From: Candidatus Latescibacterota bacterium
Lineage (GTDB): Bacteria; Latescibacterota; UBA2968
Direction of reading: 5' to 3'
Assembly: GCA_965204745.1 (NCBI GenBank)
Contig: OZ242010.1
Location: 5,283,461 to 5,347,460 of the forward strand
DNA length: 64,000 nt
The notes below the pieces were generated by a model, which was not told the DNA's origin, ran no database searches, and saw only the letters and a list, made by a program, of their open reading frames with translations. The translations under genes and the position numbers were made by a program. Below, in pieces: positions 4,093 to 29,050 of this stretch (positions are counted from its first letter, which is position 1; each line of letters opens with the position of its first letter).

Positions 4093-4130
4093 TACACTCC
4101 CCGTTGCGGGGAAGGGCCATATTAGTTTAA

Positions 4131-5632: not shown

Positions 5633-5773
5633 AGTCAGTTGTCAGTTGTCAGTCCCATCAGTCGTAGGGACGGGTTGAGGTGTAGGCCAAGAAAAAAATC
5701 ATATAAGCCGTATTGGAAGTTCCGAGAAGACATATAGGGCTAAAGACGCGCCACATTCGCCCCTGTTTTTTGC

Positions 5774-5801
5774 TTGACTCTTTTGGCAGAAGTCCTATAT
5801 A
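5774..5801 (+). promoter_or_regulatory. Sigma70-type promoter (-35 TTGACT, 16-nt spacer, -10 TATATA) for the sigma-factor gene
   Basis: TTGACT at 5774-5779 and TATATA at 5796-5801, about 30 nt upstream of the proposed GTG start. Confidence 0.35.
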
Positions 5802-5833
5802 TCGCAAAACCCAATGCCTCTCACTCCCCCTTC

Positions 5834-6682: not shown

Positions 6683-6930
6683 AAGGCACGGTGTACCTGC
6701 GATAGCCGTTCAAAGGCAAGAGGCAAGACGGAAGAGGCAAGAGGCAAGACGGGAGAAGGCCACCGCGCTGTTCCTCTCAAGTTGTCAGTTGTCAGTTGTC
6801 AGTCCGCCCCGCCCACCCCCTGTTGTAGGGGCGATGCCCCCGTGCTCGTCCAAAGATACAAGGGGGAATGAGGTCTCCCCTCCCCGAAATGGGAGGGGCA
6901 TAACATTGTGCATTCCAACAACGACGGGCA

Positions 6931-8301
6931 TCATGAATTTGATGCCCGTTTCAATTTGTCCACCCAGGCGCGGAATCGCTCGCCGCGTTCTTCAAAATTC
7001 CGAAATTGGTCGTAACTCGCAGACGCAGGCGATAGCAAGACCACATCCCCGGGTTGTGCCAAGCGGGTCGCGCATGCCATTGCCGCGGCCAAATTTTCGA
7101 CCCGATGGATGGCGGTCACACCCTTTGTCGCGTCTGCGATGGCGTCACCGGTTTCGCCCATCACAATCAGGTGCGCCACTTGTTCTGCTATCGCGGGTCC
7201 CAACTCGTCAAACGCGATGCCCTTATCGTATCCCCCGGCGATGAGCACGATGGGCTTGTCAAATGCCTCGAGTGCTGTTTGCGTGCGGTCCGGGGTTGTG
7301 GCGATTGAATCGTTCACATAGAGAACGCCGTCGATCTCGGCCACCTGTTCCAATCTGTGGGGCACGCCTTCAAACATGTGCAGTGTTTCGGCGATGTCCG
7401 TCTCGGCTACGCCGCATAATAGCGCCGCGCCCGTGGCTGCGAGTGCGTTGGCGAGGTTGTGCTGACCGCGCAAGGACAACTCATTTGCAGAACAGATTGT
7501 TCGCGCCGAGCCCCGGAGCGCGTGTTGGATTTTGCCATCGCGCACAAAGACCTGCCCATCGCCTTCAATGGCAAAGACCACGCGTTGCCCATTGCCCGGC
7601 CAGCGAGACACTTCGGCGTCTTCCCCATTGACGACGGCCCAATCGCCGCGGCTTTGGTGCGCGGTGATCTGCTGTTTGGCCTTGCGATACGCTTTTAATG
7701 ACCCGTGAACGTCGAGGTGATTGGGCGCGAAATTGGTGAGCACGGCAATGTGCGGGCTCCACGGCAACTCGCCCAGTCGGTCGAGTTGAAAGCTCGACAA
7801 CTCCAGCACAACCGGGATGGTGGCATCGCCATGCAGGATGTCCAGCGCGTCCAACAATGACCCGCCGATGTTGCCGCCGATTAGGGCGCGCCCATCCTCG
7901 CGCTTGAGCATGTCGCCCAAGAGCGACGTGGTGGTGGTCTTGCCACTGCTGCCCGTGATGCCGATCACCGGCGCGGGACAGCGTTCGACAAACAGACAGA
8001 TTTCAGACGTGATGGGCACACCTGCGGATTCCGCGACCTGCAAAAACCGCGATGACCGGGGCACTGCGGGATTGGCGACGATCAAATCCGCGTTCCGAAA
8101 ATCCGCCTCCTCGTGCCCGCCCAACACAAATGCCACGGGCAACCCATCCAGCGTGCGCACGGATGCGCCCAGTTCCCTCTCCGACCGCAAATCCGTCACT
8201 GTGACCACGGCGCCTTCGCGCACCAAAAACCGCACGGCCCCCACACCCCCGCCAAACACGCCCAACCCCATCACCAAAACGCGCTGGCCCTTTAAGTTCA
8301 T
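6931..8301 (-). CDS. murD: UDP-N-acetylmuramoylalanine--D-glutamate ligase
   Basis: N-terminus MNLKGQRVLVMGLGVFGGG (Rossmann fold). Mur ligase P-loop GITGSSGKTTTTSL. Conserved central and C-terminal Mur domains. Start at 8301 preferred over 8331. Confidence 0.85.
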   Translation of the reverse strand: MNLKGQRVLVMGLGVFGGGVGAVRFLVREGAVVTVTDLRSERELGASVRTLDGLPVAFVLGGHEEADFRNADLIVANPAVPRSSRFLQVAESAGVPITSEICLFVERCPAPVIGITGSSGKTTTTSLLGDMLKREDGRALIGGNIGGSLLDALDILHGDATIPVVLELSSFQLDRLGELPWSPHIAVLTNFAPNHLDVHGSLKAYRKAKQQITAHQSRGDWAVVNGEDAEVSRWPGNGQRVVFAIEGDGQVFVRDGKIQHALRGSARTICSANELSLRGQHNLANALAATGAALLCGVAETDIAETLHMFEGVPHRLEQVAEIDGVLYVNDSIATTPDRTQTALEAFDKPIVLIAGGYDKGIAFDELGPAIAEQVAHLIVMGETGDAIADATKGVTAIHRVENLAAAMACATRLAQPGDVVLLSPASASYDQFRNFEERGERFRAWVDKLKRASNS

Positions 8302-8366
8302 GGGAATCTCCTCTGATCGAAAAAAAGTCACTAGGTTCTGTTGACATTTAGGAGCAAAGCAACATC

Positions 8367-8700
8367 GGGACCTACCCCCCTAGCCCCCCTTCCTTAGAGG
8401 AAGGGGGGAACGCGGATGGGTTTTGCGAGGGGGACCTACCCCCTAGCCCCGTTACTCGCTACGCTTCGTTGTAGGCTACGCCTGTGCCTGCGAGGAAGGG
8501 GGAATGACGAGAGGTTTTGCGAGGGGATGGTGTGAGGGATTTTTAATCGCTTTATGCCCTCGGTCAATGCCATCAGAGCAACTAGAGATATAAGCCATCA
8601 AAGGGACTTTACTCCCCTTTCCTCGTAGGAAAGGGGCCGGGGGATAGGTCCCCTCGCGCAACGCCATCAGAGCAACCTAAGCCATCAAAGGACCAAACGC
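8367..8700. repeat. Composite GC-rich palindromic intergenic repeat cluster (family C, MITE/REP-like), two partial copies
   Basis: Contains terminal motif GGACCTACCCCC(T)AGCCCC. Perfect hairpins cccccttcc-ttaga-ggaaggggg and ccctttcc-tcgta-ggaaaggg. Submodule gtaggctacgcctgtgcct. Homologous to 10266-10343, 23391-23820 and 28872-29050. Confidence 0.7.
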
Positions 8701-8844
8701 ATTAAATGAGCAAGCAACACATTTGCTAATCTGTGCGTAACATAAAAAATAAAATGTCAACACGACCTAAAAATTAAAATAGTGATAGAAAAATAAAAAA
8801 TCAAATTGGTATAACCTGCTTTTCTCTTTGCCCCACCTGAACGC

Positions 8845-8890
8845 CCCAATCCGCGCAATCTGTTTAATCCGCGATTCAGACGAGGTGTTG
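8845..8890. repeat. Family E repeat (TAATCCGCG-type motif cluster)
   Basis: aatccgcgcaatctgtttaatccgcgattcagac is shared almost exactly with 23925-23975 and, more loosely, with 53941-53990. Confidence 0.6.
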
Positions 8891-9119
8891 CCTCTCCTTT
8901 TATCCCTTGCCAAAGGTCATCTCGGGTATTAAGTTGGTCGATGAACTTTGACATACATCCCATCGCATGCGCGGCGTGCGGTCAATGGCGAGCAACGATC
9001 CCTCGCAGAAAGGAGGCTTATGGACGGAAATCCCAAGCGAGCAGTTGCAGCATCACGCGAGTAGTTGTAGCATCAGGTCTGTTTATTTTTTGTCTCATTC
9101 ACCCCCGGAGGAAATTCCC

Positions 9120-9986
9120 ATGACGTATCGACATCCACTCTTTGCCCTGCTCTTCCTCGTTGTGTGTTTTGCCGGCTATGGCGCAAGCGATGCCGGCCAT
9201 CACAAAATGCACGAAAAAAAAACCGTCACCATCCCCGACGCCAATCTGCGCGCGGTGATCGCGGATTCTTTGAAAAAGGCGAGTGATGAGGCGATCACCA
9301 CGGCTGATATGGCCATGGTGACGCGCCTCGTCGCGCCGAATGCAGGCATTGGCGATTTGACCGGATTAGAGCACGCCACCAATCTGGCACATTTGGACCT
9401 CGGCGACGCGCGCGTGGAGGAAAAGCGCGCCAATAGCAACGACATATCCGACCTGTCGCCCCTGTCTGGCCTCACCAAGTTGAGGGTGCTGGACCTCGAC
9501 CGCGCCACCTCGGTTATGGACCTCGCGCCGCTGGCCGGGCTGATGAACCTGCGAACCCTGCGCCTCAGCAACAACGAGGTAGCCGATCTGTCGCCCTTGT
9601 CTGGCGCGACCAAGTTGAGAATCCTGACGCTTGCCGGAAACAAAAAAATCATGGACATCGAGCCGCTAGCAGGCGCGACCATGTTGCGGAACCTCAATCT
9701 GAACAACACCGGCATCTCGGACCTCGCATCCCTGTCCGGGATGGCGGAACTGGTATCGCTGAATCTCAACAGCACCAAAATTATGGACCTCGCGCCCCTC
9801 TCGGGCTTGGCGAAGCTGAAAACCTTGAATATCAACAACAACAAGGTCGGCGACATCTCGCCCGTGGCGGGCTTGAGCGCACTGAGCACCCTGAACCTCA
9901 GAAACAACCCATTGGACGAAGCGGCGATCAACACGCATGTTCCGGCCCTGAAGAAACGCGGGGTCAAAGTGGGCATCGAAGAATAA
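9120..9986 (+). CDS. Secreted leucine-rich-repeat (LRR) protein, internalin-like 22-residue repeats
   Basis: Signal peptide MTYRHPLFALLFLVVCFAGYGA. At least 9 tandem repeats of the form 'L..L..L.L..N.I.DL.PLSGL'. Confidence 0.7.
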   Translation: MTYRHPLFALLFLVVCFAGYGASDAGHHKMHEKKTVTIPDANLRAVIADSLKKASDEAITTADMAMVTRLVAPNAGIGDLTGLEHATNLAHLDLGDARVEEKRANSNDISDLSPLSGLTKLRVLDLDRATSVMDLAPLAGLMNLRTLRLSNNEVADLSPLSGATKLRILTLAGNKKIMDIEPLAGATMLRNLNLNNTGISDLASLSGMAELVSLNLNSTKIMDLAPLSGLAKLKTLNINNNKVGDISPVAGLSALSTLNLRNNPLDEAAINTHVPALKKRGVKVGIEE

Positions 9987-10082
9987 ATGTCCGCAACATC
10001 TCAACCATGACCAGCGGGGTTCGTGTCTGTCGCACGAACCCCGTTGCGGTTGAGAGGCGAAATCGAACGCCATCACGGAGGG

Positions 10083-10117
10083 AAGTTGTCAGTTGTCAGT
10101 TGTCAGTTGTCAATGCG
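10083..10117. repeat. Family A heptamer tandem repeat (GTTGTCA)n
   Basis: gttgtcagttgtcagttgtcagttgtca. Also at 5633-5655 and 6781-6810, each followed by gtcc. Confidence 0.8.
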
Positions 10118-10361
10118 AATTAAGAGTAGAAAGCGAGTAAGAAGCAAGCCGCAACCCATCATCCAAAGACATGAACGAGTCATCCATTATAGAATCGCCC
10201 TTGAATTTGTCTTAAAACGAACGATGGATGCCCCTCCTCCTGCTCTTCCCCGCAACGGAGAGATGTTATTCCCCCCTTGTATCTTCCTCGTAGGCACAGG
10301 CGTAGCCTACAACGAAGCGTAGCGAGTAACGGGGCCAGGGGGGTAGGTCGTAAAAAGTAAA

Positions 10362-10404
10362 GCCCGAGTTCACTGTGAACCCGGGCTTTTGTTTGTTTGC
10401 ATCT
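10362..10404 (-). terminator. Stem-loop terminator downstream of giant-protein/dockerin operon (bidirectional-looking)
   Basis: agcccgagttcac-tg-tgaacccgggct 13-bp stem. T/A-rich runs on both sides (ttttgtttgtttg on plus, tttacttttta on minus). Confidence 0.4.
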
Positions 10405-10418
10405 TTCGTCGTTCAGCC

Positions 10419-10613
10419 TTAGGTACCAAAGCTATCGGCGGAGATGAAGCAATCGTCGAATCCAATCTCGCCATCGCCATCGCCATCGCACCGGGGGTCA
10501 TATCGCTCCTGGCCGAGTCGCGAGCCGAACTTGCTGGCAAAGGTCAAGAAGTCGGCGAAATTCACATCGCCATCGCCATCTTCATCTGTGGCGGTCAGGG
10601 AACAGGCTTTCAT
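10419..10613 (-). CDS. Small dockerin-domain ORF (64 aa), 4-nt ATGA overlap with stop of giant gene; possibly the displaced C-terminal dockerin of the giant protein
   Basis: Two canonical dockerin Ca-binding segments: TDEDGDGDVNFADFLTFASKFG and DGDGDGEIGFDDCFISADSFG. No signal peptide. ATG at 10613-10611 overlaps the TGA at 10612-10610. Confidence 0.45.
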   Translation of the reverse strand: MKACSLTATDEDGDGDVNFADFLTFASKFGSRLGQERYDPRCDGDGDGEIGFDDCFISADSFGT

Positions 10614-13600
10614 TGGAAGTGGGAGTCGGGATAGAGGCTTCGGATGTAGGGTTCAATGGCTTGAGCGGTCGTGCGCGTAGCATTTTGCTCAATGACGTTC
10701 CCTCTGAGGAGGGCCTCGTTCCGGAAGAAGAGGACGTATCGAATGATCAGGATTATATCCGAGAACAGCCTCACATCGCCATCGCCATCCACATCGAGAA
10801 TGTTCTGATTGACCAACGTGTCGAGGTAGGGTTCAATTTCTTGAGCGGTCGTGCGCGTGGCAGTTGGCTCGATGACGTTCCCTCTGAGGAGGGCCTCTTC
10901 CCGGAAGAAGAGGACATATCGAATGACCAGGATTATATCCGAGAACAATCTCACCCGGCCATCGCCATCCACATCCAAGTTGGCACTCGAGGTTTCGTCA
11001 TCGATAATCGTCCCTGTGCCTTGCGCCGTGCTTATGGTCGCATTGGTCGCACTGCTCAGCGTCACGATCACGGTCTCGTTCTGCTCATCATCCGAGTCGT
11101 CGGTCACAGAAACAGGGATGGTCTGGATGGTATCGCCTACCGTGAAGGTCAGGGTCCCCGCGGTAAGCGCGGTGTAATCCGTCCCCGAAGTCGCGGTGCC
11201 CGTGCCCGCGTCTGCATACCCCACTGTCACTTGTGCCGTGTGCGCCGGGCGTAGGTACACCCGAAAGGTTAGGGTCGCGCCGGTCGCGCCTTCAATCACG
11301 CTTGGCGAACCGATACTCAGCGCAGGCATGCCATCGTCATCGATAATCGTCCCTGTGCCTTGCGCCGTGCTTATGGTCGCATTGGTCGCACTGCTCAGCG
11401 TCACGATCACGGTCTCGTTCGGCTCATCATCCCCGTCGTCGCTCACAGAAACAGCGATAGTCTGGCTGGTCGTGCCCGCCGCGAAGGTCAGGGTTCCTGC
11501 GGTAAGTGTGGAGTAATCCGTCCCCGAAGTCGCGGTGCCCGTGCCCGCGTCTGCATACGCCACCGTCACCTCCTTGCCGCTCACCGCATTCAATCTAACG
11601 GTGAACGTCAGGGCAGTGCCCTCAACCGCACTCGGCGAACTGATCGAGAGCCTCGGTTGCGGGTCATCATCGGTGATCGTTATTGCAGTCGGGAGGACCA
11701 CACTGCCCTGGGCGTTGGCTGATACAACGGACACGGTCACGTCGCGATTAAGTTCGTCTCGGGTGTTGTCCACCGCTGTGATGACCACCGTATCCGACGC
11801 GTTCGCGGTTTGCCCTGCCGCGATGGTGATCGTCGAATCCATCCCCACCGTGTAAGCACCGGTCACAGGGCGCACCGTGATCGTCGTCGCCGTGCTCCAC
11901 GACCGTGTCAGCGTCGCGGTCACGGTACTCATCCCGCCGCTTTCCGAGATCGACGAGGGCGTCAGGGTCAACGTCACTACCGCGGGTTGGAGTTGAAATT
12001 GCACGGTGGTGTCCATGCCGGCATACTTCAAGACCGGATACTGATCCGCCGCGCCAAAGGTCCACGGATCGTCTTTGCCCACTGCGTCGCCCGTGTTGGT
12101 ATCGCTGTCCACATTTAGGTTCCAGTTGTAGTAGGTGTCGCTGTTGGTGGCACCGTAAGTGCTCGGGCTCTGGAGATCGCGGGTGGTCTTGCCCCCGGCA
12201 ATGCCGCTCCGGTCACTGTCCCAGTAGCTATTGGTCACTGTGCCAGATGTGCTACCCACCAACCCGCCTTTCGTGCCGTCACCAGTGACCTGACCTGTCG
12301 CATAACTGGCCGTCACTTCACCGCTACTCTCGAGGCGCCCCACCAACCCGCCTTTCGTGCCGCTCCCAGTAACCGTGACCGCGCCCGTCGCATAGGACGC
12401 GATAATCGTCCCGCCGTTCTGCCACCCCACCAGACCACCGACCCAGAAATTGGCCCCACTCCCTAAGGCCGTCACAGCCGCAACGGAATAGCTAGCACTG
12501 ATGCGGCGGTTGGCACCGGTATGAGAATGCCCCACCAGACCGCCCAAGCCGTAACTGCCAGACCCCCGAACGCGACCGGTGACATAACAACCCGTGATGG
12601 CACCCCCGCGCTGATTGCCGGTGAGTCCTCCCACGGCGAGGTTGCCTCTGACATCCACATTGCGGAGCCCAAGACCGGAAACAGTGCCCGTGATATCCCG
12701 GAACAGCCCAACATCATTCTGACCGCCACGGTTGATATACAGGTTGGAGATCGTCTTGTTATTGCCCTTGAGCGTACCGGTGTAAGTCCCGAGGGGTTGC
12801 CAACCCGCGCTGCCATTCCAGTAGGTGGCGTCTGCTGAGGTGATTTCGTCGTCGCCATTCTCGTCAAAGTTGAGGTTGTTGAGCAGTTCGTAGCCGGTGC
12901 AGGTCCCAGAAGGGCAACCCATCCGGACATTGCTGGTGGTGTCGCGGTTGGGAAAGGCGGCGTTGTAGTTCATGGTATCACTATCGGCGACGATCCCATC
13001 GCCGTTGAGATCCCAGCGGATGGCATGCAGTTGTGCCAGCGTCTTAATGTCGATGAGGCCATCGCCATCCCTGTCGTAATTGATCCCCGGGGGCGTGCCC
13101 ATGACCTCGTCCGAGGGCGTGCTATCGGTCCCACCTGCCAGGGTGGCAAGGACGCGCACTGTGTAGGGCGTCCCTATCGTCAGGTTCTCTATCGTGTAGG
13201 TCGTGGTGCTGCCTCCAGAGACCGTCTCCTGGCGAGAAGAGGTGTTGTAGCTTTGTCCACCGGACTTCCACTGCACCTTGTAGCCCGTCGCGCCGGTTGC
13301 CTCGGTCCAAGCCACAATGAGTTGGCCCGGCCCAGGCGTCACGCGCACATTGGTGGGTTTATTTGTCGCCAAGGTCACCATGACTGCGTCCGAAGGAGCG
13401 CTGTCGGCTACATTGATATTGGTACTCGTGGCGATGACGCGAATCGTGTAAGTCGTCCCTGCGGTCAGCCCAGAAATTTTGTGGATCGTGGTGCTCCCGC
13501 CAGCGATTGTGGCTTGCCCGTGCGTGGCCAACGCCAGATCGGCGGTGGGATAAGTCGCTACCCCGGATTTCCACTGCACCTTATACCCAGTTGCATCGTT

Positions 13601-16600
13601 CACCGCATTCCAAGTCACGGTCAGCGTGTCCACCTTCGCCGCCACCATCACAGCCGGACTGCCCAGCAAGGCGGGAACGCCGGTCTGCTCTGCCGAGGGC
13701 ATGCCATCGGGCGCACCGGTCTTGGTGGCAATGACACGCACTGTGTAGGTCGTCTCGGCGAGCAAGTTGGGGATCTTGTAGCGCGTCCCTGTGACGATCC
13801 CCTGACGTGAGGCGGCGTAGCTCTGCGCGCCGGCTTTCCACTGCACCTTGTACCCCGTCGCATAACTCGCCGCAGTCCAACGCACGTCCAAGGTGTCCGC
13901 TTTTGGCGTTACTGTCACACTTGTCGGAATGCCCGGCGGTTGCAAGTTATACTGCACGGTGGTGTCCATGCCGGCATATTTCAAGACCGGATACTGATTC
14001 GCCGCGCCAAAGGTCCACGGATCGTCGTTGCCGGGTTGTCCGTCGAGGTTGGCGTTCCAGCCGTAGTAGGTGTCGTTGCTGGTGGCACCGTAGGTGGTGG
14101 GGCTTATGAGCGCGCTGGTCGTCAGTCCGGTAACGCCGCTACCGCCGGCGCTGGTTGTGCAACCGTTGCTGCCGCCGGATGTACAGCCGCTGGTTTGGGT
14201 GTCCCAGTAGCTTGCGGTGCCGCCCGTGCCGGAGCCTATCAACCCGCCGATGGTTGTTAGCGTTCCGCTGGAGCGAGTAACCACGCCGGTGGAGTAGGAG
14301 TTCGTTACGGTGCCGCCTTGGCTTGCTCCCAGCAGTCCGCCGACGTGCTCAGGGCCGCTGACGGATGCGGTGGAGTAGCTTGAGGTAATCGCGTTGGGCG
14401 TCCATCCGACCAGTCCGCCGGCGGTCCTAGTCGTCGCCGAAATGTTGCCGGTGGAGTAGCAGGCGACGACTGTGCCGCGCAGGGCGCCGACCAGAGCGCC
14501 GGCATATTCGCCTCCCGCAACACTGGCGTTGGTTATGCCGACGGACTCGATGCGGGAGGCGGTGTCGACGTTGCCGAATAATCCCACTTCAACGACGGAG
14601 GGTCGGTTGATGGTCAGGTTGTCGATAGTGTAGCCGTTGCCCTTGAAATCGCCGGTGTATCTGGCGGCGTCTGTGCCAATGGGTAGCCAGCCGTCGCCGT
14701 TGTTCCAGTAGGTGGCGTCTGCTTGGGTGATTTCGCCATCGCCATTCTCGTCAAAGTCGAGGTTGTTGAGCAGTTCGTAGCCGGTGCAGGTCCCGGAAGG
14801 GCAACCCATCCGGCCGCTACTGGTGGTGACGCGGTTGGGAAAGGCGGCGTTGTAGGTCATGGTATCATTATCGGCGACGACCCCATCGCCGTTGAGATCC
14901 CAGCGGATGGCATGCAGTTGCGCCAGCGTCTTAATGTCGATGAGGCCATCGCCATCGCTGTCGTAATTGATCGCTTGGGGCGTGCCCATGACCTCGTCCG
15001 AGGGCGTGCTATCGGTCCCACCTGCCAGGGTAGCAGTGACGCGCACCGTGTAGGTCGTGCCAAAGGTCAGGTTCTCTATCGTGTGGGTCGTAGTGCTCAT
15101 CCCAGAGACCGTCGTCTGGCGATCAGATGTGTTGTAGCTTTGTACACCGGACTTCCACTGTATCTTGTATCCCGTCGCGCCGGTTGCCTCGGTCCAAGCC
15201 ACAATGAGTTGGCCCGGCCCCGGCGTCACGCGCACATTGGTGGGCTTGGTGGTCGCCGAGGTCACCATGACTTCCTCCGAAGGGGCACTGTTGCCGGCCG
15301 TTGTGGTGTGCGTGGCGATGACGCGAATCGCGTAGGTCGTCCCTGGGGTCAGCCCAGAAATTTTGTGGATCGTGGTGCGCCCGCCAGCGATAGTGGCTTG
15401 CCCATGCGTGGCGGACTCCTCATCGGCGGCGGGATAAGTCTCTGACCCGGATTTCCACTGCACCTTATACCCGGTTGCGAGGGGCACCGCATTCCAGGTC
15501 ACGGTCAACGTGTCCACCTTCGCACTCACCTCCACACCCGTTGGGCTACCCAGCGTGAGAAGGGTGATCACTTCCTCCGAGGGGGCACTGTCGGCTACAT
15601 TGGTACGCGTGGCGATGACGCGAATCGCGTAGGTCGTCCCTGGGGTCAGCCCAGAAATTTTGTGGATCGTGGTGCGCCCGCCAGAGATTGTGGCTTGCCC
15701 GTGCGTGGCGGACTCCTCATCGGCGGCGGAATAAGTCTCTGACCCGGATTTCCACTGCACTTTGTAGCCGGTTGCTCCGTTCGCCGCATTCCAAGTCACG
15801 GTCAGCGTGTCCACCTTCGCATTCACCTCCACACCCGTCGGGCTACCCAGCAGGGGAACGCCGGTCTGCTCTGCCGAGGGCCGGCCATCGCGGACACCGG
15901 TCTTGGTGGCAATGACACGCACTGTGTAAGTCGTCCCGCCGATCAAGTTGGCGATCTTGTAGCGCGTATCCGTGGTGATGGCCTCACGCGAGACGGCGTA
16001 GTTCTGCGCGCCGGCTTTCCACTGCACCTTGTATCCCGTCGCATTACTCGGCGCAGTCCAACGCACGTCCAAGGTGTCCCTTTGCACCGTCACGGTTACA
16101 CTTGTCGGAATGCCCGGCGGTTGCATTGCAAATTGTGCGGTGGTGTCCATGCCGGCATATTTCAACACCGGATACTGATCCGCCGCGCCAAAGGTCCACG
16201 GGTTGTCACTGCCAGGCCTGCCATCGACATCCACATTCCAGTTGGCGTAGATGCCGTTGTAATCCGTTTCTGACCGCAACGCGCTGGTGGTCTGGCTCGT
16301 GCCGCGAGCACTGGATGAGCGACCACTACTTTCCCTATCCCAGTAACTATGGGACACTCCGGATTGTGCAAACCCGATCAATCCGCCTAGTTGGCTGGAG
16401 TCATGTCTGCGCCCAGTGACTGTCCCCGTGGCATAGCTGGTACTAACCGAACTAGGAGAAATGTCCAACCTCCCCACCAAACCGCCGACCCTGAAATTTC
16501 CAGTCACCGGCCCGATAGCGTAGGACGCTATCACCGTAGCCTTTAGTCTGCCCACCAAACCGCCGGCCCCGTCATGAATCCGCCCTCCGGAGACCTCAGC

Positions 16601-17983
16601 ATTGGCATAGCTGGCCGCGATGACGGTATTATTACCGTTTGATTCACCCGCTAAACCGCCCACATCGTGACCAGTACCCTCAACGCGACCCGTGACATAA
16701 CAGCCCAGGATGCGACCACCCACCTGATTACCGACCAACCCACCCACTTGATTTCTGCCTCTTACATTGACACTTTTCAGCCCCAGACCGGAAATGTTGC
16801 CGCTGACACGGCCGAACAGCCCAACATCATCCTGACCACGGTTGATGTGCAGGTTGGAGATGGTCTTGTTATTGCCCTTGAACGTGGTTGAGTAGGTGCC
16901 TCCGATGGGCGACCAGTTGGGGTAGGTGTCGGCAGAGGTGACGCTCCCGCTCCCGTCGGTGTCGAAATTTAGGTTGTTGAGCAGTTCGTAGCCGGTGCAT
17001 GTCCCGGAAGGACAACCCATCCGGACGTTGCTGGTGGTGTCGCGGTTGGGAAAGGCGGCGTTGTAGTTCGTGATATCACTATCGGCGACGATCCCATCGC
17101 CGTTGAGATCCCAGCGGATGGCATGCAGTTGCGCCAGCGTCTCAATGTCGATGAGGCTATCGCCATCGCTGTCGTAATTGAACCCTTGGGGCGTGCCCAT
17201 GACCTCGTCCGAGGGCGTGCTATCCATCCCACCTGCCAGGGTAGCAAGGACGCGCACGGTGTAGGTCGTGCCAAAAGTCAGGTTCTCTATCGTATAGGTC
17301 GTGGTGCTCCCTCCAGAGACCGTCTCCTGGCGAGAAGAGGTGTTGTAGGTCTGTTGTCCGGACTTCCACTGCACCTTGTATCCCGTCGCACCGGTTGCCT
17401 CGGTCCAAGCCACAATGAGTTGGACCGGCCCCGGCGTCACGCGCACATTGGTGGGTTTGGTTGTCGCCGAGGTCACCATGACTTCCTCCGAGGGGGCACT
17501 GTCGGCTAAATTGATATTGGTACTCGTGGCGATGACGCGAATCGTGTAGGTCGTCCCTGCGGTCGGCCCAGAAATTTTGTAGGTCGTGGTGCGCCCGTCA
17601 GAGATTGTGGCTTGCCCGTGCGTGGCGGCCTGAGAATCGGAGGTGGGATAAGTCGTTGCCCCGGATTTCCACTGCACCTTATACCCGGTGGCATCGTCCA
17701 CCACATTCCAAGTCACGGTCAGCGTGTCCACCTTCGCCGCCACCATCACAGCCGGACTGCCCAGCAAGGCGAGAACGCCGGTCTGCTCTGCCGAGGGTGT
17801 GCTATCGGGCGCACCGGTCTTGGTGGCAATGACACGCACTGTGTAGGTCGTCTCGCCGAGCAAGTTGGGGATCTTGTAGCGCGTCCCCGTGACGATCCCC
17901 TGACGCGAGGCGGCGTAGCTCTGATCGCCGGATTTCCACTGCACCTTGTACCCCGTCGCATAACTCGACGCACGCCAACGCAC
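10610..17983 (-). CDS. Giant cell-surface protein, C-terminal portion: 3x[Ca-loop+GLUG+3 FN3] modules, 3 Calx-beta domains, 2 dockerin-like repeats
   Basis: Repeated YDSDGDGLIDIKTLAQLHAIRWDLNGDG (DxDxDG loops). GLUG motifs (VGGLVG/AGGLVG/IGGLIG recurring roughly every 20 aa). FN3 repeats (PPGIPTSVTVT...GYKVQWKSG...TTYTVRVIATKTG). Calx-beta (LSISSPSAVEG...TDYSTLTAGTLTFAAGTTSQTIAVSVSDDGDDEPNETV). C-terminal DVDGDGRVRLFSDIILVIRYVLFF x2. Confidence 0.75.
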   Translation of the reverse strand: MRWRASSYATGYKVQWKSGDQSYAASRQGIVTGTRYKIPNLLGETTYTVRVIATKTGAPDSTPSAEQTGVLALLGSPAVMVAAKVDTLTVTWNVVDDATGYKVQWKSGATTYPTSDSQAATHGQATISDGRTTTYKISGPTAGTTYTIRVIATSTNINLADSAPSEEVMVTSATTKPTNVRVTPGPVQLIVAWTEATGATGYKVQWKSGQQTYNTSSRQETVSGGSTTTYTIENLTFGTTYTVRVLATLAGGMDSTPSDEVMGTPQGFNYDSDGDSLIDIETLAQLHAIRWDLNGDGIVADSDITNYNAAFPNRDTTSNVRMGCPSGTCTGYELLNNLNFDTDGSGSVTSADTYPNWSPIGGTYSTTFKGNNKTISNLHINRGQDDVGLFGRVSGNISGLGLKSVNVRGRNQVGGLVGNQVGGRILGCYVTGRVEGTGHDVGGLAGESNGNNTVIAASYANAEVSGGRIHDGAGGLVGRLKATVIASYAIGPVTGNFRVGGLVGRLDISPSSVSTSYATGTVTGRRHDSSQLGGLIGFAQSGVSHSYWDRESSGRSSSARGTSQTTSALRSETDYNGIYANWNVDVDGRPGSDNPWTFGAADQYPVLKYAGMDTTAQFAMQPPGIPTSVTVTVQRDTLDVRWTAPSNATGYKVQWKAGAQNYAVSREAITTDTRYKIANLIGGTTYTVRVIATKTGVRDGRPSAEQTGVPLLGSPTGVEVNAKVDTLTVTWNAANGATGYKVQWKSGSETYSAADEESATHGQATISGGRTTIHKISGLTPGTTYAIRVIATRTNVADSAPSEEVITLLTLGSPTGVEVSAKVDTLTVTWNAVPLATGYKVQWKSGSETYPAADEESATHGQATIAGGRTTIHKISGLTPGTTYAIRVIATHTTTAGNSAPSEEVMVTSATTKPTNVRVTPGPGQLIVAWTEATGATGYKIQWKSGVQSYNTSDRQTTVSGMSTTTHTIENLTFGTTYTVRVTATLAGGTDSTPSDEVMGTPQAINYDSDGDGLIDIKTLAQLHAIRWDLNGDGVVADNDTMTYNAAFPNRVTTSSGRMGCPSGTCTGYELLNNLDFDENGDGEITQADATYWNNGDGWLPIGTDAARYTGDFKGNGYTIDNLTINRPSVVEVGLFGNVDTASRIESVGITNASVAGGEYAGALVGALRGTVVACYSTGNISATTRTAGGLVGWTPNAITSSYSTASVSGPEHVGGLLGASQGGTVTNSYSTGVVTRSSGTLTTIGGLIGSGTGGTASYWDTQTSGCTSGGSNGCTTSAGGSGVTGLTTSALISPTTYGATSNDTYYGWNANLDGQPGNDDPWTFGAANQYPVLKYAGMDTTVQYNLQPPGIPTSVTVTPKADTLDVRWTAASYATGYKVQWKAGAQSYAASRQGIVTGTRYKIPNLLAETTYTVRVIATKTGAPDGMPSAEQTGVPALLGSPAVMVAAKVDTLTVTWNAVNDATGYKVQWKSGVATYPTADLALATHGQATIAGGSTTIHKISGLTAGTTYTIRVIATSTNINVADSAPSDAVMVTLATNKPTNVRVTPGPGQLIVAWTEATGATGYKVQWKSGGQSYNTSSRQETVSGGSTTTYTIENLTIGTPYTVRVLATLAGGTDSTPSDEVMGTPPGINYDRDGDGLIDIKTLAQLHAIRWDLNGDGIVADSDTMNYNAAFPNRDTTSNVRMGCPSGTCTGYELLNNLNFDENGDDEITSADATYWNGSAGWQPLGTYTGTLKGNNKTISNLYINRGGQNDVGLFRDITGTVSGLGLRNVDVRGNLAVGGLTGNQRGGAITGCYVTGRVRGSGSYGLGGLVGHSHTGANRRISASYSVAAVTALGSGANFWVGGLVGWQNGGTIIASYATGAVTVTGSGTKGGLVGRLESSGEVTASYATGQVTGDGTKGGLVGSTSGTVTNSYWDSDRSGIAGGKTTRDLQSPSTYGATNSDTYYNWNLNVDSDTNTGDAVGKDDPWTFGAADQYPVLKYAGMDTTVQFQLQPAVVTLTLTPSSISESGGMSTVTATLTRSWSTATTITVRPVTGAYTVGMDSTITIAAGQTANASDTVVITAVDNTRDELNRDVTVSVVSANAQGSVVLPTAITITDDDPQPRLSISSPSAVEGTALTFTVRLNAVSGKEVTVAYADAGTGTATSGTDYSTLTAGTLTFAAGTTSQTIAVSVSDDGDDEPNETVIVTLSSATNATISTAQGTGTIIDDDGMPALSIGSPSVIEGATGATLTFRVYLRPAHTAQVTVGYADAGTGTATSGTDYTALTAGTLTFTVGDTIQTIPVSVTDDSDDEQNETVIVTLSSATNATISTAQGTGTIIDDETSSANLDVDGDGRVRLFSDIILVIRYVLFFREEALLRGNVIEPTATRTTAQEIEPYLDTLVNQNILDVDGDGDVRLFSDIILIIRYVLFFRNEALLRGNVIEQNATRTTAQAIEPYIRSLYPDSHFQ

Positions 17984-20900
17984 ATCCTAAGGTGTCCACT
18001 TTTGGCGTTACGGTCACACTTGTCGGAATGCCCGGCGGTTGCAAGTTATACTGCACGGTGGTGTCCATGCCGGCATATTTCAACACGGGATATTGATCTG
18101 TCTTGCCAAAGGTCCACGGCTCGTCGTTGCCGGGTTGTCCGTCGAGGTTGGCGTTCCAAGTGGAGAAGATGAGGGTGTAGCCGGTGGGGGATTGGAGCGC
18201 GCTGGTCGTCTGGCCGGTAACGCCGCTACCGCCGGCGCTGGTTGTGCAACCGTTGCTACCGCCGGATGTACAGCCGCTGGTTTGGGTGTCCCAGTAGCTT
18301 GCGGTGCCGCCCGTGCCGGAGCCTATCAACCCGCCGACGAGTGGAGAACTGCCGGTGCCGATAACCGTGCCGATGGAGTAGGAGTTCGTTACGGTGCCGC
18401 CTTGGCTTGCTCCCAGCAGTCCGCCGACGTGCTCAGGGCCGCTGACGGATGCGGTGGAGTAGCTTGAGGTAATCGCGTTGGGCGTCCATCCGACCAGTCC
18501 GCCGGCGGTCCTAGTCGTCGCCGAAACGCTGCCGGTGGAGTAGCAGGCGACGACTGTGCCGCGCAGGGCACCGACCAGAGCGCCGGCATATTCGCCTCCC
18601 GCAACACTGGCGTTGGTTATGCCGACGGACTCGATGCGGGAGGCGGTGTCGGCATTGCCGAATAATCCCACTTCAACGACGGCGGGTCGGTTGATGGTCA
18701 GGTTGTCGATAGTGTAGCCGTTGCCCTTGAAATCGCCGGTGTATCTGGCGGCGTTTGTGCCGATGGGTAGCCAGCCGTCGCCGTTGTTCCAGTAGGTGGC
18801 GTCTGCTGAAGTGATTTCGCCGTCGCCATTCTCGTCAAAGTCGAGGTTGTTGAGCAGTTCGTAGCCGGTGCAGGTCCCGGAAGGGCAACCCATCCGGACG
18901 TTGCTGGTGATGTCTCGGTTGGGAAAGGCGGCGTTGTAGGCGGTCGTATCGCTGGTTGAGGCACTTGCGTCTATGGCACCATCGCCGTTGAGATCCCAGC
19001 GGATGGCATGCAGTTGCGCCAGCGTCTCAATGTCGATGAGGCCATCGCCATCGCCATCGTAATCGATCCCTTGGGGCGTGCCCATGACCTCGTCCGAAGG
19101 CGTGCTATCGGTCCCACCTGCCAGGGTAGCAGTGACGCGCACCGTGTAGGTCGTGCCAAAAGTCAGGTTCTCTATCGTGTAGGTCGTGGTGCTTCCTCCA
19201 GAGACCGTCTCCTGGCGATCAGATGTGTTGTATGCCTGTTGCCCGGACTTCCACTGTATCTTGTATCCCGTCGCGCCAGTTGCCTCGGTCCAAGCCACAA
19301 GGAGTTGGAAATGCCCCGGCGTCACGCGCACATTGGTGGGCTTGTTTGTCGCCGCAGTTACCATGACTTCCTCCGAAGGGTCACTGTCGGCGATATTGAG
19401 ATTGGTACTCGTGGCGATGACGCGAATCGTGTAAGTCGTCCCTGCGGTCACATTGGAGATTTTGTAGGTCGTGGTGCTCCCGCCTGCGATGGTGGCTTGC
19501 CCGTGCGTGGCGGCGGACGTCAGATCGGAGGTGGGATAAGTCGCTACCCCGGATTTCCACTGCACCCTATACCCGGTTGCGTTGGACACCGCATTCCAAG
19601 TCACGGTCAGCGTGTCCACCTTCGCACTCGCCATCACAGGCGGACTGTCCAGCGTGGACACGATAAAGATGGATTGCTCTGCTGAGGGTGTGCCATCGCG
19701 GGCACCGGTCTTGGTGGCAATGACACGCACTGTGTAGGTCGTCCCAAACGTCAAGTTGGGAATCTTGTGGCGCGTCCCCGTGGTGGTGGCCTCACGCGAG
19801 GCGGTATCGTAGCTCTGCGTGCCGGATTTCCACTGCACCTTGTACCCCGTCGCATAACTCGCCGCAGTCCAACGCACGTCCAAGGTGTCCGCTTTTTGCG
19901 TTACTGTCACACTTGTCGGAATGCCCGGCGGTTGCATTGCAAATTGCGCGGTGGTGTCCATGCCGGCATACTTCAAGACCGGATACTGATCCGTCTTGCC
20001 AAAGGTCCACGGATCATCGCCGCCCGGTTGCCTGTCCAGGTTCAGGTCCCAATTCATTATGTAGATGCCGGTATAACCCGTGGGGCCTTGGAGACCGGCG
20101 GTGGTCTGGGGAGCACCGCGTCCGGTGTCGCTACGTTTAGAGGTGGTACTATCGTAGTAGCTATGGGTAATTGTTGAACTACTGTTGAGACCGACCAGGC
20201 CACCAACCTGTGAAGGAGCACTGACCGGGCCGATGGCATAGCTACCGGTTATCGTGCTGGAATAGAAGTTGGCACCGACCAGGCCACCGGTTCTATAGTT
20301 GCCGCTGACTACGCCGGTGGCATAGCTGGCGCGTATGATGGCCTTCGGGCTACCAAAGTTGCCGTGGAAGCCCACCAGGCCGCCGACGTAAGTAGTGCCG
20401 CTGACTGCGCCGGTAGCATAGCTAGCGGTTATCGTGCCGCGACTCCAGCCCACCAAGCCGCCGATGCTTATATTAGACCCAGTGACGTCCACCTCGGAAC
20501 GACAGGCGGTAATGGTCGAGCTACCGTGCCGCAGCCAGCCCACCAAGCCGCCGCTTCGTGCATACCCGCTGACCTGTCCGGTAACGCGGATGTGCATGAG
20601 ATGGAGCCTGTTGCCTTCGCCAACAAGGACTGCGGTTTCAGAATTGCCGGTCACATTGGCGTTCACCAGGCTCAAATTGCGGATCGTACCGTCCGCGGCA
20701 AAGCCGAACAGCCCGATGTCGTCGGCAGAGCGGTTGATAAACAGGTTGGAGATGGTATAGTCGTTGCCGTGGAAGGTGCCGGTGTATTTCGTCGCACTGT
20801 TGCCGATGGGCGCCCAGCCTGCGCCGCTGTTCCAGTAGGTGGCGTCTGCTACGGTGATTTCGTTGTCGTTGTTCTCGTCGAAGTTGAGGTTGTTGAGCAG

Positions 20901-23060
20901 TTCGTAGCCGGTGCAGGTTCCGGAAGGGCAACCCATCCGGCCGCTACTGGTGGTAACGCGGTTGGGAAAGGCGGCGTTGTAGTTCATGGTATCATTATCG
21001 GCGACGACCCCATCGCCGTTGAGATCCCAGCGGATGGCATGCAGTTGCGCCAGCGTCTTAATGTCGATGAGGCCATCGCCATCGCTGTCGTAATTGATCG
21101 CGTAGGGCGTGCCCATGACCTCGTCCGAGGGCGTGCTATCGGTCCCACCTGCCAGGGTAGCAGTGACGCGCACCGTGTAGGTCGTGCCAAAAGTCAGGTT
21201 CTCTATCGTGTAGGTCGTGGTGCTTCCTCCAGAGACCGTCTCCTGGCGATCAGATGTGTTGTAGCTTTGTCCACCGGACCTCCACTGCACCTTGTATCCC
21301 GTCGCGCCGGTTGCCTCGGTCCAAGCCACAATGAGTTGGGCCGGCCCCGGCGTCACGCGCACATTGGTGGGTCTGGTGGTCGCCAAGGTCACCATGACTG
21401 CGTCCGAGGGGACACTGTCGGCTAAATTGATATTGGTACTCGTGGCGATGACGCGAATCGTGTAGGTCGTCCCTGTGGTCAGCCCAGAAATTTTGTGGAT
21501 CGTGGTGCCCCCGCCAGCGATGGTGGCTTGCCCGTGCGTGGCGGACTGCTCATCGGAGGTGGGATAAGTCGCTACCCCGGATTTCCACTGTACCTTATAC
21601 CCGGTTGCGTTGGACACCACATTCCAAGTCACGGTCAGCGTGTCCACCTTCGCCGCCACCATCACAGCCGGACTGCCCAGCAAGGCGGGAACGCCGGTCT
21701 GCTCTGCCGAGGGTGTGCCATCGGGCGCACCGGTCTTGGTGGCAATGACACGCACTGTGTAGGTCGTCTCGCCGAGCAAGTTGGCGATCTTGTAGCGCGT
21801 CCCTGTGACGGTCTCCTCACGCGAGGCGGCGTAGCTCTGATCGCCGGATTTCCACTGCACCTTGTACCCTGTCGCATAACTCGCCGCAGTCCAACGCACG
21901 TCCAAGGTGTCCGCTTTTGGCGTCACGGTCACACTGGTCGGCCTGCCCGGCGGTTGCAAGTTATACTGCACGGTGGTGTCCATGCCGGCATATTTCAAGA
22001 CCGGATACTGATCCGCCGCGCCAAAGGTCCACGGATCATCGTCGCCGGGTTGTCCGTCGATGTTGGCGTTCCAGGTGGAGAAGATGAGGGTGTAGTCGGT
22101 GGGGGATTGGAGCGCGCTGGTCGTCTGGCCGGTAACGCCGCTACCGCCGGCGCTGGTTGTGCAACCGTTGGTGCCGCCGGATGTACAGCCGCTGGTTTGG
22201 GTGTCCCAGTAGCTTGCGGTGCCGCCCGTGCCGGAGCCTATCAACCCGCCGATGAGTGGAGAACTGCCGGTGCCGATAACCGTGCCGATGGAGTAGGAGT
22301 TCGTTACGGAGCCGCCTTGGCTTGCTCCCAGCAGTCCGCCGACGTGCTCAGGGCCGCTGACAGATGCGGTGGAGTAGCTTGAGGTAATCGCGTTGGGCGT
22401 CCATCCGACCAGTCCACCGGCGACCCTAGTCGTCGCCGAAACGTTGCCGGTGGAGTAGCAGGCGACGACTGTGCCGCGCAGGGCGCCGACCAGAGCGCCG
22501 GCATATCCGCTTCCTGCAACACTGGCGTTGGTTACGCCGACGGACTCGATGCGGGAGGCGGTGTCAGTGGTGCCGAATAATCCCACTCCAGAGACGGCGG
22601 GGCGGTTGATGGTCAGGTTGTCGATAGTGTAGCCGTTGCCCTTGAAATCGCCGGTGTATCTGGCGGCGTCTGTGCCGATGGGGACCCAGCCGTCGCCGTC
22701 GTTCCAGTAGGTGGCGTCTGCTGAGGTGATTTCGCCATCGCTGTTCTCGTCAAAGTTGAGGTTGTTGAGCAGTTCGTAGCCGGTGCAGGTCCCGGAAGGG
22801 CAACCCATCCGGCCGCTACTGGTGGTGACGCGGTTGGGAAAGGCGGCGTTGTAGGCGGTCGTATCGCTGGTCGTGGCACTTGCGTCTATGGCACCATCGC
22901 CGTTGAGATCCCAGCGCATGGCATTGAGCTGGGCGAGGTTGGCTACATCAATGTAGCCGTCGTTGTTCATGTCGTAGTCGGTTTGGGCAAAAGCCGGCCC
23001 CGATGCCACCAGCATGGCCAGCGCGACCAGGGCCAACAAGTGAGCGTAGCGGGGCATCAT
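17984..23060 (-). CDS. Giant cell-surface protein, N-terminal portion (signal peptide + 3 modules); same gene as 10610-17983 interrupted by a 1-nt frameshift near 17988
   Basis: ATG at 23060 preceded by GAGGGGGA SD. Signal peptide MMPRYAHLLALVALAMLVASGPAFA. Module architecture identical to the downstream part. The listed ORF's upstream extension (23061-23717) is read-through of the leader/repeats and is not coding. Confidence 0.7.
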
Positions 23061-23254
23061 TTTGTCCCCCTCTCGAGGGGGGGGGGGGGGGGGTACACTG
23101 TACTGATCATCGTAACAGGCTGTTTTGCAATAAAATAGAACCGCACTCCAAGACGAGGATGGGCGATATGAACGCCACTTTTCGCGGTGGGACAGGCTGG
23201 AAAAACATAGCGCCAAATGAGGTTCAAACAGCGGCTGAAAATGGCGGTGATCAT
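23057..23254 (-). CDS. Leader uORF (65 aa) ending in polyproline encoded by the poly-C tract; stop overlaps giant-gene ATG (ATGA)
   Basis: AAAGGAGG SD 6 nt upstream of ATG 23254. Reads through 17 consecutive C (PPPPP). TGA at 23059-23057 overlaps ATG 23060-23058. Confidence 0.3.
   Translation of the reverse strand: MITAIFSRCLNLIWRYVFPACPTAKSGVHIAHPRLGVRFYFIAKQPVTMISTVYPPPPPLERGTK
23077..23093. repeat. Homopolymeric G17 (C17 on coding strand) tract ~15 nt upstream of giant-gene start codon
   Basis: Directly visible run of 17 G between 23077 and 23093. Confidence 0.9.
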
Positions 23255-23336
23255 CTGAAGCCTCCTTTGCAAAGCTGTCGCACAGACCGGGTGCGACTTT
23301 TTCTTCGCGTTCAAAATCGCAATGGTGAACGGGAAA

Positions 23337-23366
23337 AATATAGGGAATCGCGCTCTTGTTTGTCAA
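23337..23366 (-). promoter_or_regulatory. Sigma70-type promoter for giant gene (TTGACA-18nt-TATATT), implying ~270-nt leader
   Basis: Minus-strand TTGACA (23366-23361), 18-nt spacer, TATATT (23342-23337). Confidence 0.35.
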
Positions 23367-23390
23367 GCGGTAAAATGACGATGGGAATTG

Positions 23391-23820
23391 GGACCTACCC
23401 CCTGGCCCCCTTCCTAAGAGGAAGGGGGAATGGCGAGAGGTTGTGCGAGGGATTGTGTGTAAGGGTTTTTGGATTTTCATGGCGTGATCCATTCGCCCAA
23501 AGCCATCAAAACAGCCCTGGATGCAAACCTTCAAGAAAGCCATGCGCTCCCCCTTTCCTTGTAGGAAAGGGGGCCGGGGGGATAGGTCCTGCGATGAAGG
23601 GGGAATGGCGAAAGGTTTTGCGAGGGATTGCGCGAGGGGGGTTTGGGGTTCTATGGCGTGATCCATTCGCCCAAAGCCATCAAAACAGCCCTGGATGCAA
23701 ACCTTTAAGAAAGCCATGCGCTCCCCCTTTCCGCGTAGGCACAGGCGTAGCCTACAATGAGCGAAGCGAATAACGGGGGCCGGGGGGATAGGGCTATGGC
23801 GACAGGGCGTGCGAAGGACA
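23391..23820. repeat. Family C composite repeat, two tandem full copies with ~75-nt conserved core
   Basis: Core catggcgtgatccattcgcccaaagccatcaaaacagccctggatgcaaacctt(c/t)aagaaagccatgcgctccccctttcc duplicated. Ends gtaggcacaggcgtagcctac...ggggccggggggataggg. Same family as 8367-8700 and 28872-29050. Confidence 0.75.
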
Positions 23821-28702: not shown

Positions 28703-29050
28703 CGGTGAAAGGTGAGAGGTGAAAGGTGAAAGGTGAGAGGGCCGCCCAACAGCCCATCCGCAAGTAAGAGGTGAGACGGGAGAGGTGAGAGGGCCGCCCA
28801 ACAGCCCATCCGCAAGTAAGAGGTGAGACGGGAGAGGTGAGAGGGCCGCCCAACAGCCCATCCGCAAGTAAGGGGGAATGGCGAGAGGTCTTCGGGGTTC
28901 ATGGCGTTATCCATTCGCCCAAAGCCATCAAATCCGCCCTGGATGCAACCCTTTAAGAAAGCCATGCGCTCCCCCTTTCCTCGTAGGCACAGGCGTAGCC
29001 TACAATGAGCGAAGCGAATAACGGGGGCCGGGGGGATAGGGCTATGGCGG
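28703..29050. repeat. Tandem ~52-nt units (family B, x2.5) plus one family C core copy in cusA upstream region
   Basis: Unit gggccgcccaacagcccatccgcaagtaagaggtgagacgggagaggtgaga repeated head-to-tail. Followed by the conserved core ...ccattcgcccaaagccatcaaa...gtaggcacaggcgtagcctac. Confidence 0.75.

Follow-up and report, generated by a model that had tools for sequence, protein, structure and literature searches.

Organization of the locus

The window considered here is a stretch of 64,000 nucleotides (nt) from the genome of a Candidatus Latescibacterota bacterium (GTDB lineage Bacteria; Latescibacterota; UBA2968), namely positions 5,283,461 to 5,347,460 of the forward strand of contig OZ242010.1 in GenBank assembly GCA_965204745.1. 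Our analysis focused on a giant gene of ~12.4 kb on the minus strand of this window, which encodes a modular, repetitive protein with a predicted signal peptide. Between ~23.7 and 10.6 kb, the minus strand contains two very long open reading frames (ORFs), 17802..23717 (1,971 codons) and 10610..17983 (2,457 codons), which sit in different frames and overlap over 182 nt (17802-17983); counted from the ATG, the first runs from 23060 to 17802 and the second from 17983 to 10610, both on the minus strand. Their translations represent a single repetitive protein cut in two: if base 17988 is deleted, one frame of 4,149 codons with no other stop is obtained, and its stop codon lies at 10612-10610. The initial annotation of this DNA proposed one gene from 23060 to 10610 with a product of ~4,150 amino acids (aa). 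The long minus-strand coding region and, once repaired, the product length of 4,149 aa agree with that proposal, but as sequenced there are two ORFs, separated by one extra base.

The outer limits of the element had been placed at 10419 and 23366. The upstream limit is that of a sigma-70-like promoter (23337..23366, minus strand; TTGACA, an 18-nt spacer and TATATT, with 11/12 consensus matches), a match to the consensus alone whose function is predicted; its sequence is conserved upstream of the paralogue in locus L078. At the other end, an intrinsic-terminator-like hairpin (10359..10389, minus; 14 bp followed by a T-run), conserved in the related loci L080-L083, lies just beyond the proposed limit, but position 10419 itself is the end of a separate 64-codon ORF. 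The start codon, an ATG at 23060, is preceded by the Shine-Dalgarno (SD) sequence GAGGGGGA and opens a signal peptide (22986..23060, minus), MMPRYAHLLALVALAMLVASGPAFA, with the cleavage site placed before QT. This segment was assigned by inspection and reads as Sec-type, in agreement with the signal peptide claimed earlier, and a near-identical one is found in the relatives P0002, P0123, P0267, P0269 and P0272.

Domain architecture of the giant protein

In the Pfam scan, 16 fn3 stretches, Glug and two Calx-beta stretches exceed the thresholds, which bears out the GLUG, fibronectin type III (FN3) and Calx-beta assignments of the initial annotation. The fn3 model (PF00041) scores 167.8 and 277.9 bits (cut-off 25), the Glug model (PF07581) 57-73 bits for the two ORFs (cut-off 20.5), and Calx-beta (PF03160) 71.6-77 bits in two stretches (cut-off 27), with matches to the calcium-binding domains of NCX1 in the PDB. 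Six heads of ~340-380 aa each start at aa 29, 657, 1334, 1962, 2699 and 3328. They fall into three types, A (heads 1, 3 and 5; 84-89% identical), B (heads 4 and 6; 66%) and C (head 2; 57-61% identical to the other heads). The number of FN3 domains per module is 3, 3, 3, 4, 3 and 0, a total of 16 in place of the regular six-by-three arrangement proposed before; the sixth head leads straight into the Calx-beta region.

On the minus strand, head 1 (21975..22976), in which a DxDxDG-type cap is combined with a GLUG beta-helix, is followed by three FN3 domains (21093..21974), and head 2 (19953..21092; Glug score 62.3 bits with five stretches) by another three (19062..19952). Head 3 (18060..19061) precedes the three FN3 domains of module 3 (17177..18059), the first of which contains the frameshift. 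Head 4 (16142..17176), which was modelled with AlphaFold2 and compared with Foldseek, is followed by the array of four FN3 domains (14966..16141), and inside this array we observed a local duplication of 90% identity (15851-15570 versus 15554-15270). Head 5 (13961..14965) precedes three further FN3 domains (13079..13960), and head 6 (12008..13078) none. The FN3 arrays were delimited with Pfam; head 1 was assigned from its Pfam Glug match and its identity to heads 3 and 5, and heads 3, 5 and 6 from Pfam matches and from comparison among the heads. The Calx-beta region (11000..11992, minus) was reported to contain three such domains. Two of them pass Pfam, but the first is a divergent relative only, with 41% identity over 74 aa to the second (E 5e-5) and, in Pfam, a weak LapA match alone (E 2.2). 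The two 60-aa repeats of the C-terminus follow (10613..10981, minus).

No catalytic family was found in Pfam or NCBIfam scans of the 4,149 aa (neither Peptidase_M26 nor any carbohydrate-active enzyme, CAZyme), and no RTX/HemolysinCabind match in the Pfam scan. A match to PF23759 corresponds to a fragment of 25 residues in the FN3 region.

The heads form a GLUG beta-helix

The AlphaFold2 model of head 4 has a mean predicted local distance difference test score (pLDDT) of 95.1 and a predicted template modelling (TM) score of 0.93. According to this model, the head is a right-handed GLUG beta-helix. In the PDB, Foldseek finds significant similarity solely to GLUG beta-helices, i.e. 3N6Z (BACOVA_03286; E 6e-8, TM 0.63-0.66) and the N-terminal domain of the Streptococcus pneumoniae IgA1 protease (6XJA, 6XJB and 7JGJ; E ~1e-4 for 6XJA and 6XJB), and a profile search reaches E ~1e-17 to residues ~172-334 of the latter (6XJA/6XJB). 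Pectate lyases, tailspikes and pentapeptide proteins follow with Foldseek E-values of 0.2 or worse. The analogy drawn earlier with GLUG domains of IgA-protease/ZmpB-type proteins is therefore upheld by fold as well as by profile. The protein itself is not a protease: the NCBIfam ZmpA model scores 13.4 bits against a cut-off of 3000, and Peptidase_M26 is absent from the Pfam matches.

When head 4 was aligned with 59 other sequences (three other heads of the gene and 56 homologues), little or no variation was seen in the loops DYDxDxDGLI and AxRxDLxGDG, a pair of cysteines (GC....C.GYEL), the motif W.PIG, the coils GLFG and GGLVG, and the C-cap PW.FG...YP.L. Across the six heads of the gene, the N-cap is 79-86% and the C-cap 78% conserved, the helix body ~50%. 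The N-cap with its two DxDxDG-type loops presumably binds calcium. The giant protein shares with 3N6Z and the IgA1 protease domain the fold, recognizable sequence homology and the GGLVG-type coils. However, it lacks the M26 domain, the LPXTG anchor and the G5 domain of the IgA1 protease (Zmp, M26), and unlike the solved GLUG proteins it repeats the head six times, in alternation with FN3 arrays. The strongly conserved N-cap (DYDxDxDG...DLNGDG) is characteristic of its family. Pfam covers the GLUG motif of 28 aa, not the head of ~350 aa.

C-terminal repeats and the out-of-frame dockerin-like ORF

The two repeats at the C-terminus follow the pattern DVDGDG.VRLFSDIIL.IRYVLFF...ATRTTAQ.IEPY and end in ...YPDSHFQ. 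They had been called dockerin-like. Both repeats are real and show a weak resemblance to dockerins, but their Dockerin_1 (PF00404) score of 21.4 bits (E 2.9e-4) remains under the gathering cut-off of 22.9, and the calcium loops are 60 aa apart. An exhaustive HMMER search with the C-terminal repeat retrieved 3,192 cluster representatives at E <=1e-3 and 770 at E <=1e-10; of the 150 best, 95 have the domain at the very end of the protein, no more than 10 residues from its C-terminus. The family consensus, present twice, is LDxDGDG...LTDGLLxLRYLFGFRG..L.....ATRxTAxEIExYL. For ten members and the query, Pfam and NCBIfam yielded no family above threshold, and this repeat family of more than 3,000 cluster representatives is without a model in either database. 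Its relatives comprise P0258-P0414, of which P0258 carries three copies, and the named members are hypothetical proteins of Cocleimonas, Methylococcaceae and Psychrosphaera.

Compared with the PDB, the family profile matches dockerins best (1OHZ_B, 4UYQ_B, 2CCL_B and 4FL4_A; E 0.005-0.06), in the loop-helix segment only. As in the type I dockerins of Clostridium thermocellum Xyn10B (1OHZ_B) and A. cellulolyticus ScaB (4UYQ_B), a calcium loop plus helix (DxDGDG...D..L..RY.L) occurs twice at the C-terminus. In contrast to them, each segment carries an additional ~35 aa (…ATRxTAxEIExYL), giving the period of 60 aa, and the family consists mainly of hypothetical proteins of marine Gram-negative bacteria. 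To judge from these comparisons, "dockerin-like" seems a fair description, while membership in the dockerin family is not established. The end ...SLYP[DA]SHFQ* is conserved as the C-terminus in at least eight relatives and reads as a functional C-terminus in them. Scans of the C-terminal ORF revealed no sorting domain of the Por_Secre_tail type, and the C-terminus is predicted to be helical.

A more canonical EF-hand pair lies directly downstream and out of frame, in an ORF of 64 codons (10419..10613, minus; Dockerin_1 14.8 bits) whose ATG overlaps the stop codon of the giant gene (ATGA; CAATGAAAG). Its product, MKACSLTATDEDGDGDVNFADFLTFASKFGSRLGQERYDPRCDGDGDGEIGFDDCFISADSFGT, closely resembles the in-frame C-termini of the Latescibacterota GLUG proteins L046 (...DIDGDGNVNFADFILFAGKYGSRIGQDRYDPRCDLNGDGQIDFADFLIFAADFGSTG) and L018. 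The overlap and the small ORF are also present in the four related loci L080-L083. There, the small ORF has a 6-nt deletion in the second loop (L082 and L083), a 1-nt deletion with frameshift (L080) or a replaced segment (L081); in the same comparison, hardly any variation is seen over the 150 nt that precede the stop of the giant gene. These lesions and resemblances suggest that the ORF is probably the decaying remnant of an ancestral C-terminal dockerin that was cut off in this clade. Both a functional small gene and a programmed -1 frameshift giving access to the dockerin ORF are unlikely, given that there is no slippery heptamer, no signal peptide and that the relatives carry lesions.

The frameshift at position 17988

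The break between the two long ORFs is a single extra A at 17988 (17988..17988, minus strand), which causes a +1 shift in the first FN3 domain of module 3 and ends the first ORF at 17802. It was recognized by comparison with the paralogous copies within the gene: the site reads GACACCTT[A]GGATGTGCG, the extra base being in brackets, whereas four paralogous FN3 starts of the same gene read GACACCTTGGACGTGCG without it (at closer range, GACACCTT[A]GGATGTG versus GACACCTTGGACGTG). The extra A is also missing at all three matching sites of the 91%-identical locus L001. It lies outside any homopolymer. The public gene call P0266 (2,409 aa, from a GTG at ~17839) begins downstream of the extra A and is identical to the downstream ORF; hence the break is also present in the deposited assembly. 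We rejected programmed frameshifting at this position, since there is no slippery motif, a TAG stands in the +1 frame at the site, and the relatives are simply in frame. As sequenced, the gene would give a secreted N-terminal product of 1,751 aa (1,690 residues plus an out-of-frame tail of 61) with three heads and six FN3 domains, and the C-terminal module would be lost; the 2,457 codons downstream carry no export signal. The odds between a recent mutation and a consensus error as the origin of the extra base are about even.

Split homologues were observed elsewhere: in L080 (7218-10719) and in L082 and L083 (~4100-10824), the homologues are divided into several ORFs, and in L080 an internal deletion has fused a head to Calx-beta. 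These splits reflect decay of the family in those lineages or, alternatively, errors to which the consensus of low-coverage long reads is prone in such repeats.

Distribution of the family

The head has more than 2,572 homologues with 40-50% identity, nearly all of them unnamed metagenomic proteins, often with fn3. In species-representative genomes, at least 501 loci were confirmed, often several per genome. Among the loci listed, most belong to Dehalococcoidia, and others to Binatia, Acidobacteriota, Latescibacterota, Azotimanducaceae and metagenome-assembled genomes (MAGs) of Ca. Oxydemutator. Many genes of the family code for proteins with 4-11 heads and a length of 3,000-5,800 residues or more; such multi-head giants occur in MAGs of Dehalococcoidia, Binatia, Acidobacteriota, Latescibacterota and Gammaproteobacteria. 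The close relatives (1,146-3,499 aa) share the signal peptide, the heads, the FN3 and Calx-beta-type domains and the same C-terminus. In view of these close relatives and the many multi-head giants, the combination of domains, which had been considered unusual, is common in this niche.

Ca. Oxydemutator has been described as a sponge symbiont (PMC11685487), and Poribacteria from sponges are part of the SB06xx bin series (PMC7883664). According to Robbins et al. (2021), genes with FN3 and cadherin domains are enriched in sponge MAGs and laterally transferred, and a role in attachment was proposed for them; Latescibacterota, a typical sponge-symbiont phylum, are among the phyla rich in repeat proteins (PMC8163846). 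The genes of that study resemble the giant gene in that they are FN3-rich, bear Ca2+ domains, are putatively adhesive and occur across unrelated symbiont phyla. They differ in the domains concerned, i.e. FN3 and cadherin; dockerin, cohesin and Calx were not found in the text of the paper (PMC8163846). On GLUG in sponge symbionts, or on dockerin and cohesin in Latescibacteria or sponge symbionts, no relevant literature was found.

Upstream region, dispersed repeats and neighbouring genes

Between promoter and start codon lies an upstream ORF (uORF) of 65 codons (23057..23254, minus) with a strong SD sequence (AAGGAGG), whose TGA overlaps the main ATG (ATGA). In L078 (~2440-2610), the uORF and the stop/start overlap are kept despite indels of -12, -16 and +1 nt. 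The uORF start corresponds by homology to the main start codon in genes of the L083 type; the alignment with L083 shows it to be the ancestral start of the signal-peptide coding region, which an insertion of ~175 nt has split. Translational coupling of uORF and main gene is possible. The uORF further contains a poly-C tract of 17 nt (23077..23093, minus; poly-G on the plus strand) just 5' of the main SD sequence, which encodes PPPPP and is the sole homopolymer of at least 10 nt in the window; L078 has three C at this place. It is possibly a hypermutable or a polyproline-stalling element. A hairpin in which the poly-C tract would sequester the SD sequence is predicted, but no better than in shuffled controls (z -0.24 and -0.57), and we rejected it.

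Dispersed repeats in the same orientation bracket the giant gene. One intergenic copy of TTGTAGGCTACGCCTGTGCCTAC lies downstream of it (10290..10312, minus), and a second, together with a tandem duplication of ~145 bp (23421-23739), upstream of the promoter (23421..23757, minus). The window contains four copies (8469-8491 on the plus strand; 10290-10312, 23735-23757 and 28983-29005 on the minus strand), where none is expected, as well as copies of an adjacent motif of ~40 nt (23512-23553, 23686-23727 and 28934-28975, minus); similar sequences flank the homologues in L080, L082 and L083. Rfam and tRNA scans of the window gave no match.

The neighbours of the giant gene include two AcrB-type resistance-nodulation-division (RND) pumps, an NHL protein, a Na/sulfate symporter, a sigma-70 factor, MurD, a leucine-rich repeat (LRR) protein, two PhyH-family proteins, an Eco57I-like methylase, TnpB, an Opp-type ATP-binding cassette (ABC) transporter, a UvrA-like protein and an FtsX/M28 protein. 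The LRR gene (8967-9986, plus) is convergent with the giant gene; like the NHL-repeat protein (3166-4092, plus), its product is a eukaryote-like repeat protein of the kind reported in sponge symbionts. MurD has a relative of 89% identity, and the named homologues (58-63%) are mostly from Latescibacteria. When positions 5774-10000 of the window are compared with OZ251458.1 (L079; 4167377-4188747), the murD-sigma70 pair is conserved and synteny ends at murD. Beside murD, OZ251458.1 lacks both the LRR gene and the giant gene, which thus lie in a variable region. A patch of low GC content (31398-37723; 46.6% at 32-34 kb versus ~58% elsewhere) contains an Eco57I/TaqI-like N6-methyltransferase, two ORFs without Pfam match and a TnpB/Cas12f-like IS605 OrfB (36482-37723, minus), and looks like a mobile or defence islet.

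Interpretation

We presume, with a probability of about 0.58, that the locus represents a large and uncharacterized family of giant, Sec-exported, Ca2+-stabilized multivalent adhesins or extracellular fibres, here in a Latescibacterota host that is probably sponge-associated. According to this model, the six rigid GLUG beta-helix heads, each with a calcium-loop N-cap and a conserved cysteine pair, would serve as recognition modules, and the FN3 stalks would space them apart. Because the caps are ~80% conserved, the helix bodies only ~50%, and three head types occur, each molecule may expose several binding faces and could bind with avidity to host matrix, glycan or other cells. The Calx-beta and Calx-beta-like domains together with the 60-aa repeats may form a Ca2+-dependent C-terminal attachment module, whose partner need not be a cohesin. 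The earlier description as a giant surface protein is plausible in these terms, but the gene is not intact as sequenced.

The giant, Ca2+-dependent bacterial adhesins LapA, SiiE and MpIBP, which are substrates of type I secretion systems with C-terminal signals of the RTX type and without N-terminal signal peptide, are likewise proteins of several thousand residues with tandem beta-sandwich spacers, Ca2+ domains and ligand-binding modules. The giant protein differs from them by its Sec signal peptide, by the lack of RTX and by several internal beta-helix heads, in contrast to one distal ligand-binding region.

Several observations weigh against our interpretation. Owing to the frameshift, the full protein may not be made in this organism. 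The Pfam and NCBIfam scans point to no route across the outer membrane: neither a C-terminal domain of the type IX secretion system nor an RTX or autotransporter signal was detected. The AlphaFold2 prediction for the C-terminal repeats, made with an alignment of eight sequences, is unusable (pLDDT 39.7), and the beta-helix fold is found in enzymes as well. At the syntenic site of OZ251458.1, the closest complete Latescibacterota genome, the giant gene is absent and unrelated genes are found. The association of the host with sponges is probable, but deduced from carrier MAGs in sponge-symbiont taxa and bin series, and the carrier family Azotimanducaceae is largely free-living (PMC12625764).

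The most serious alternative is that the frameshift is real and marks the loss of the gene from this lineage, a fate that family members in related genomes appear to share. The extra A is indeed not part of a homopolymer and is absent at the paralogous and orthologous sites, P0266 carries the same break, several ORFs take the place of one in the relatives of L080, L082 and L083 (with an internal deletion as well in L080), and the gene is not found at the syntenic site in OZ251458.1. On the other hand, there is only one lesion in 12.4 kb and no other stop in either part, so that any inactivation must be very recent. Intact relatives reach 3,499 aa, and the fragmented homologues come from contigs of 4-8x coverage, to judge from the contig names, so that consensus errors in such repeats are plausible. 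A pseudogene is possible on this evidence, but we regard it as clearly less probable than a gene that functions as an adhesin or fibre. What we consider extremely improbable is that smaller genes or repeat copies were collapsed or chimerically joined during assembly, a possibility already raised in the initial annotation. The gene is highly repetitive and related long-read contigs have low coverage; however, the repeat copies share 83-93% identity and include no exact repeat of at least 200 bp, the frame runs unbroken through all junctions except for one base, and comparable multi-head genes are present in dozens of independent chromosome-level MAGs and in close relatives.

Two further alternatives concern the function of the protein. 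The initial annotation had favoured a cohesin-docked adhesin or fibre, whose C-terminal dockerin would bind a cohesin on a scaffoldin or an S-layer anchor protein. The repeats almost reach the Dockerin_1 threshold (E 2.9e-4), their best profile matches in the PDB are true dockerins (1OHZ_B, 4UYQ_B and 2CCL_B), and L046, L018, P0047 and P0080 end in dockerin-like pairs. Yet all dockerin scores (21.4, 21.0, 14.8 and 13.1 bits) stay below 22.9 bits, the in-frame repeats with their 60-aa period and helical extension of ~35 aa belong to a different, unmodelled family, and the pair that looks canonical lies out of frame and shows decay. Moreover, scans of 40 window ORFs and of the 10 ORFs beside L046 and L018, the homologues with dockerin-like ends in two Latescibacterota genomes, revealed no cohesin. 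Docking to a cohesin is unlikely in the light of these results. Still less likely are heads that act as enzymes, be it as beta-helix lyases or hydrolases or as substrate-gating parts of the protease type, which would make the protein a multi-catalytic degradative fibre. The heads belong to the fold class of pectate lyases and tailspike depolymerases, albeit with weak matches (E 0.2 or worse), their nearest solved relatives are parts of IgA1 proteases, and an abundance of glycoside hydrolases and carbohydrate esterases has been reported for sponge Latescibacteria. But the 4,149 aa yielded no match to an M26 peptidase or to any CAZyme family, similarity to lyases and hydrolases falls short of significance (TM 0.3 or lower), and the conserved residues are structural, i.e. 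the glycines and leucines of the coils, the caps and the cysteine pair.

Beyond the adhesin or fibre itself, a wider hypothesis can be put forward, which is speculative and rather doubtful as a whole. The Ca-capped head of ~350 aa may have spread laterally among unrelated symbiont phyla for recognition of host or matrix. An "extended dockerin-like" module of 2×60 aa (LDxDGDG..LTDGLLxLRYLFGF..ATRxTAxEIExYL), having replaced the canonical dockerin, might constitute a new, cohesin-independent and Ca2+-dependent anchoring or sorting system in marine Gram-negatives, with expression gated by the uORF and its poly-C tract.

Giant repetitive surface adhesins and FN3-rich symbiont proteins are known as a kind, and the two unmodelled domain families and the conserved uORF with its poly-C tract are the more interesting by-products of this analysis. 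For the biology of the family, the gene is an uncharacterized example of the FN3-rich putative attachment proteins that have been proposed to aid persistence in sponges, and among the parts of such proteins, the beta-helix head stands out as a concrete candidate recognition module.

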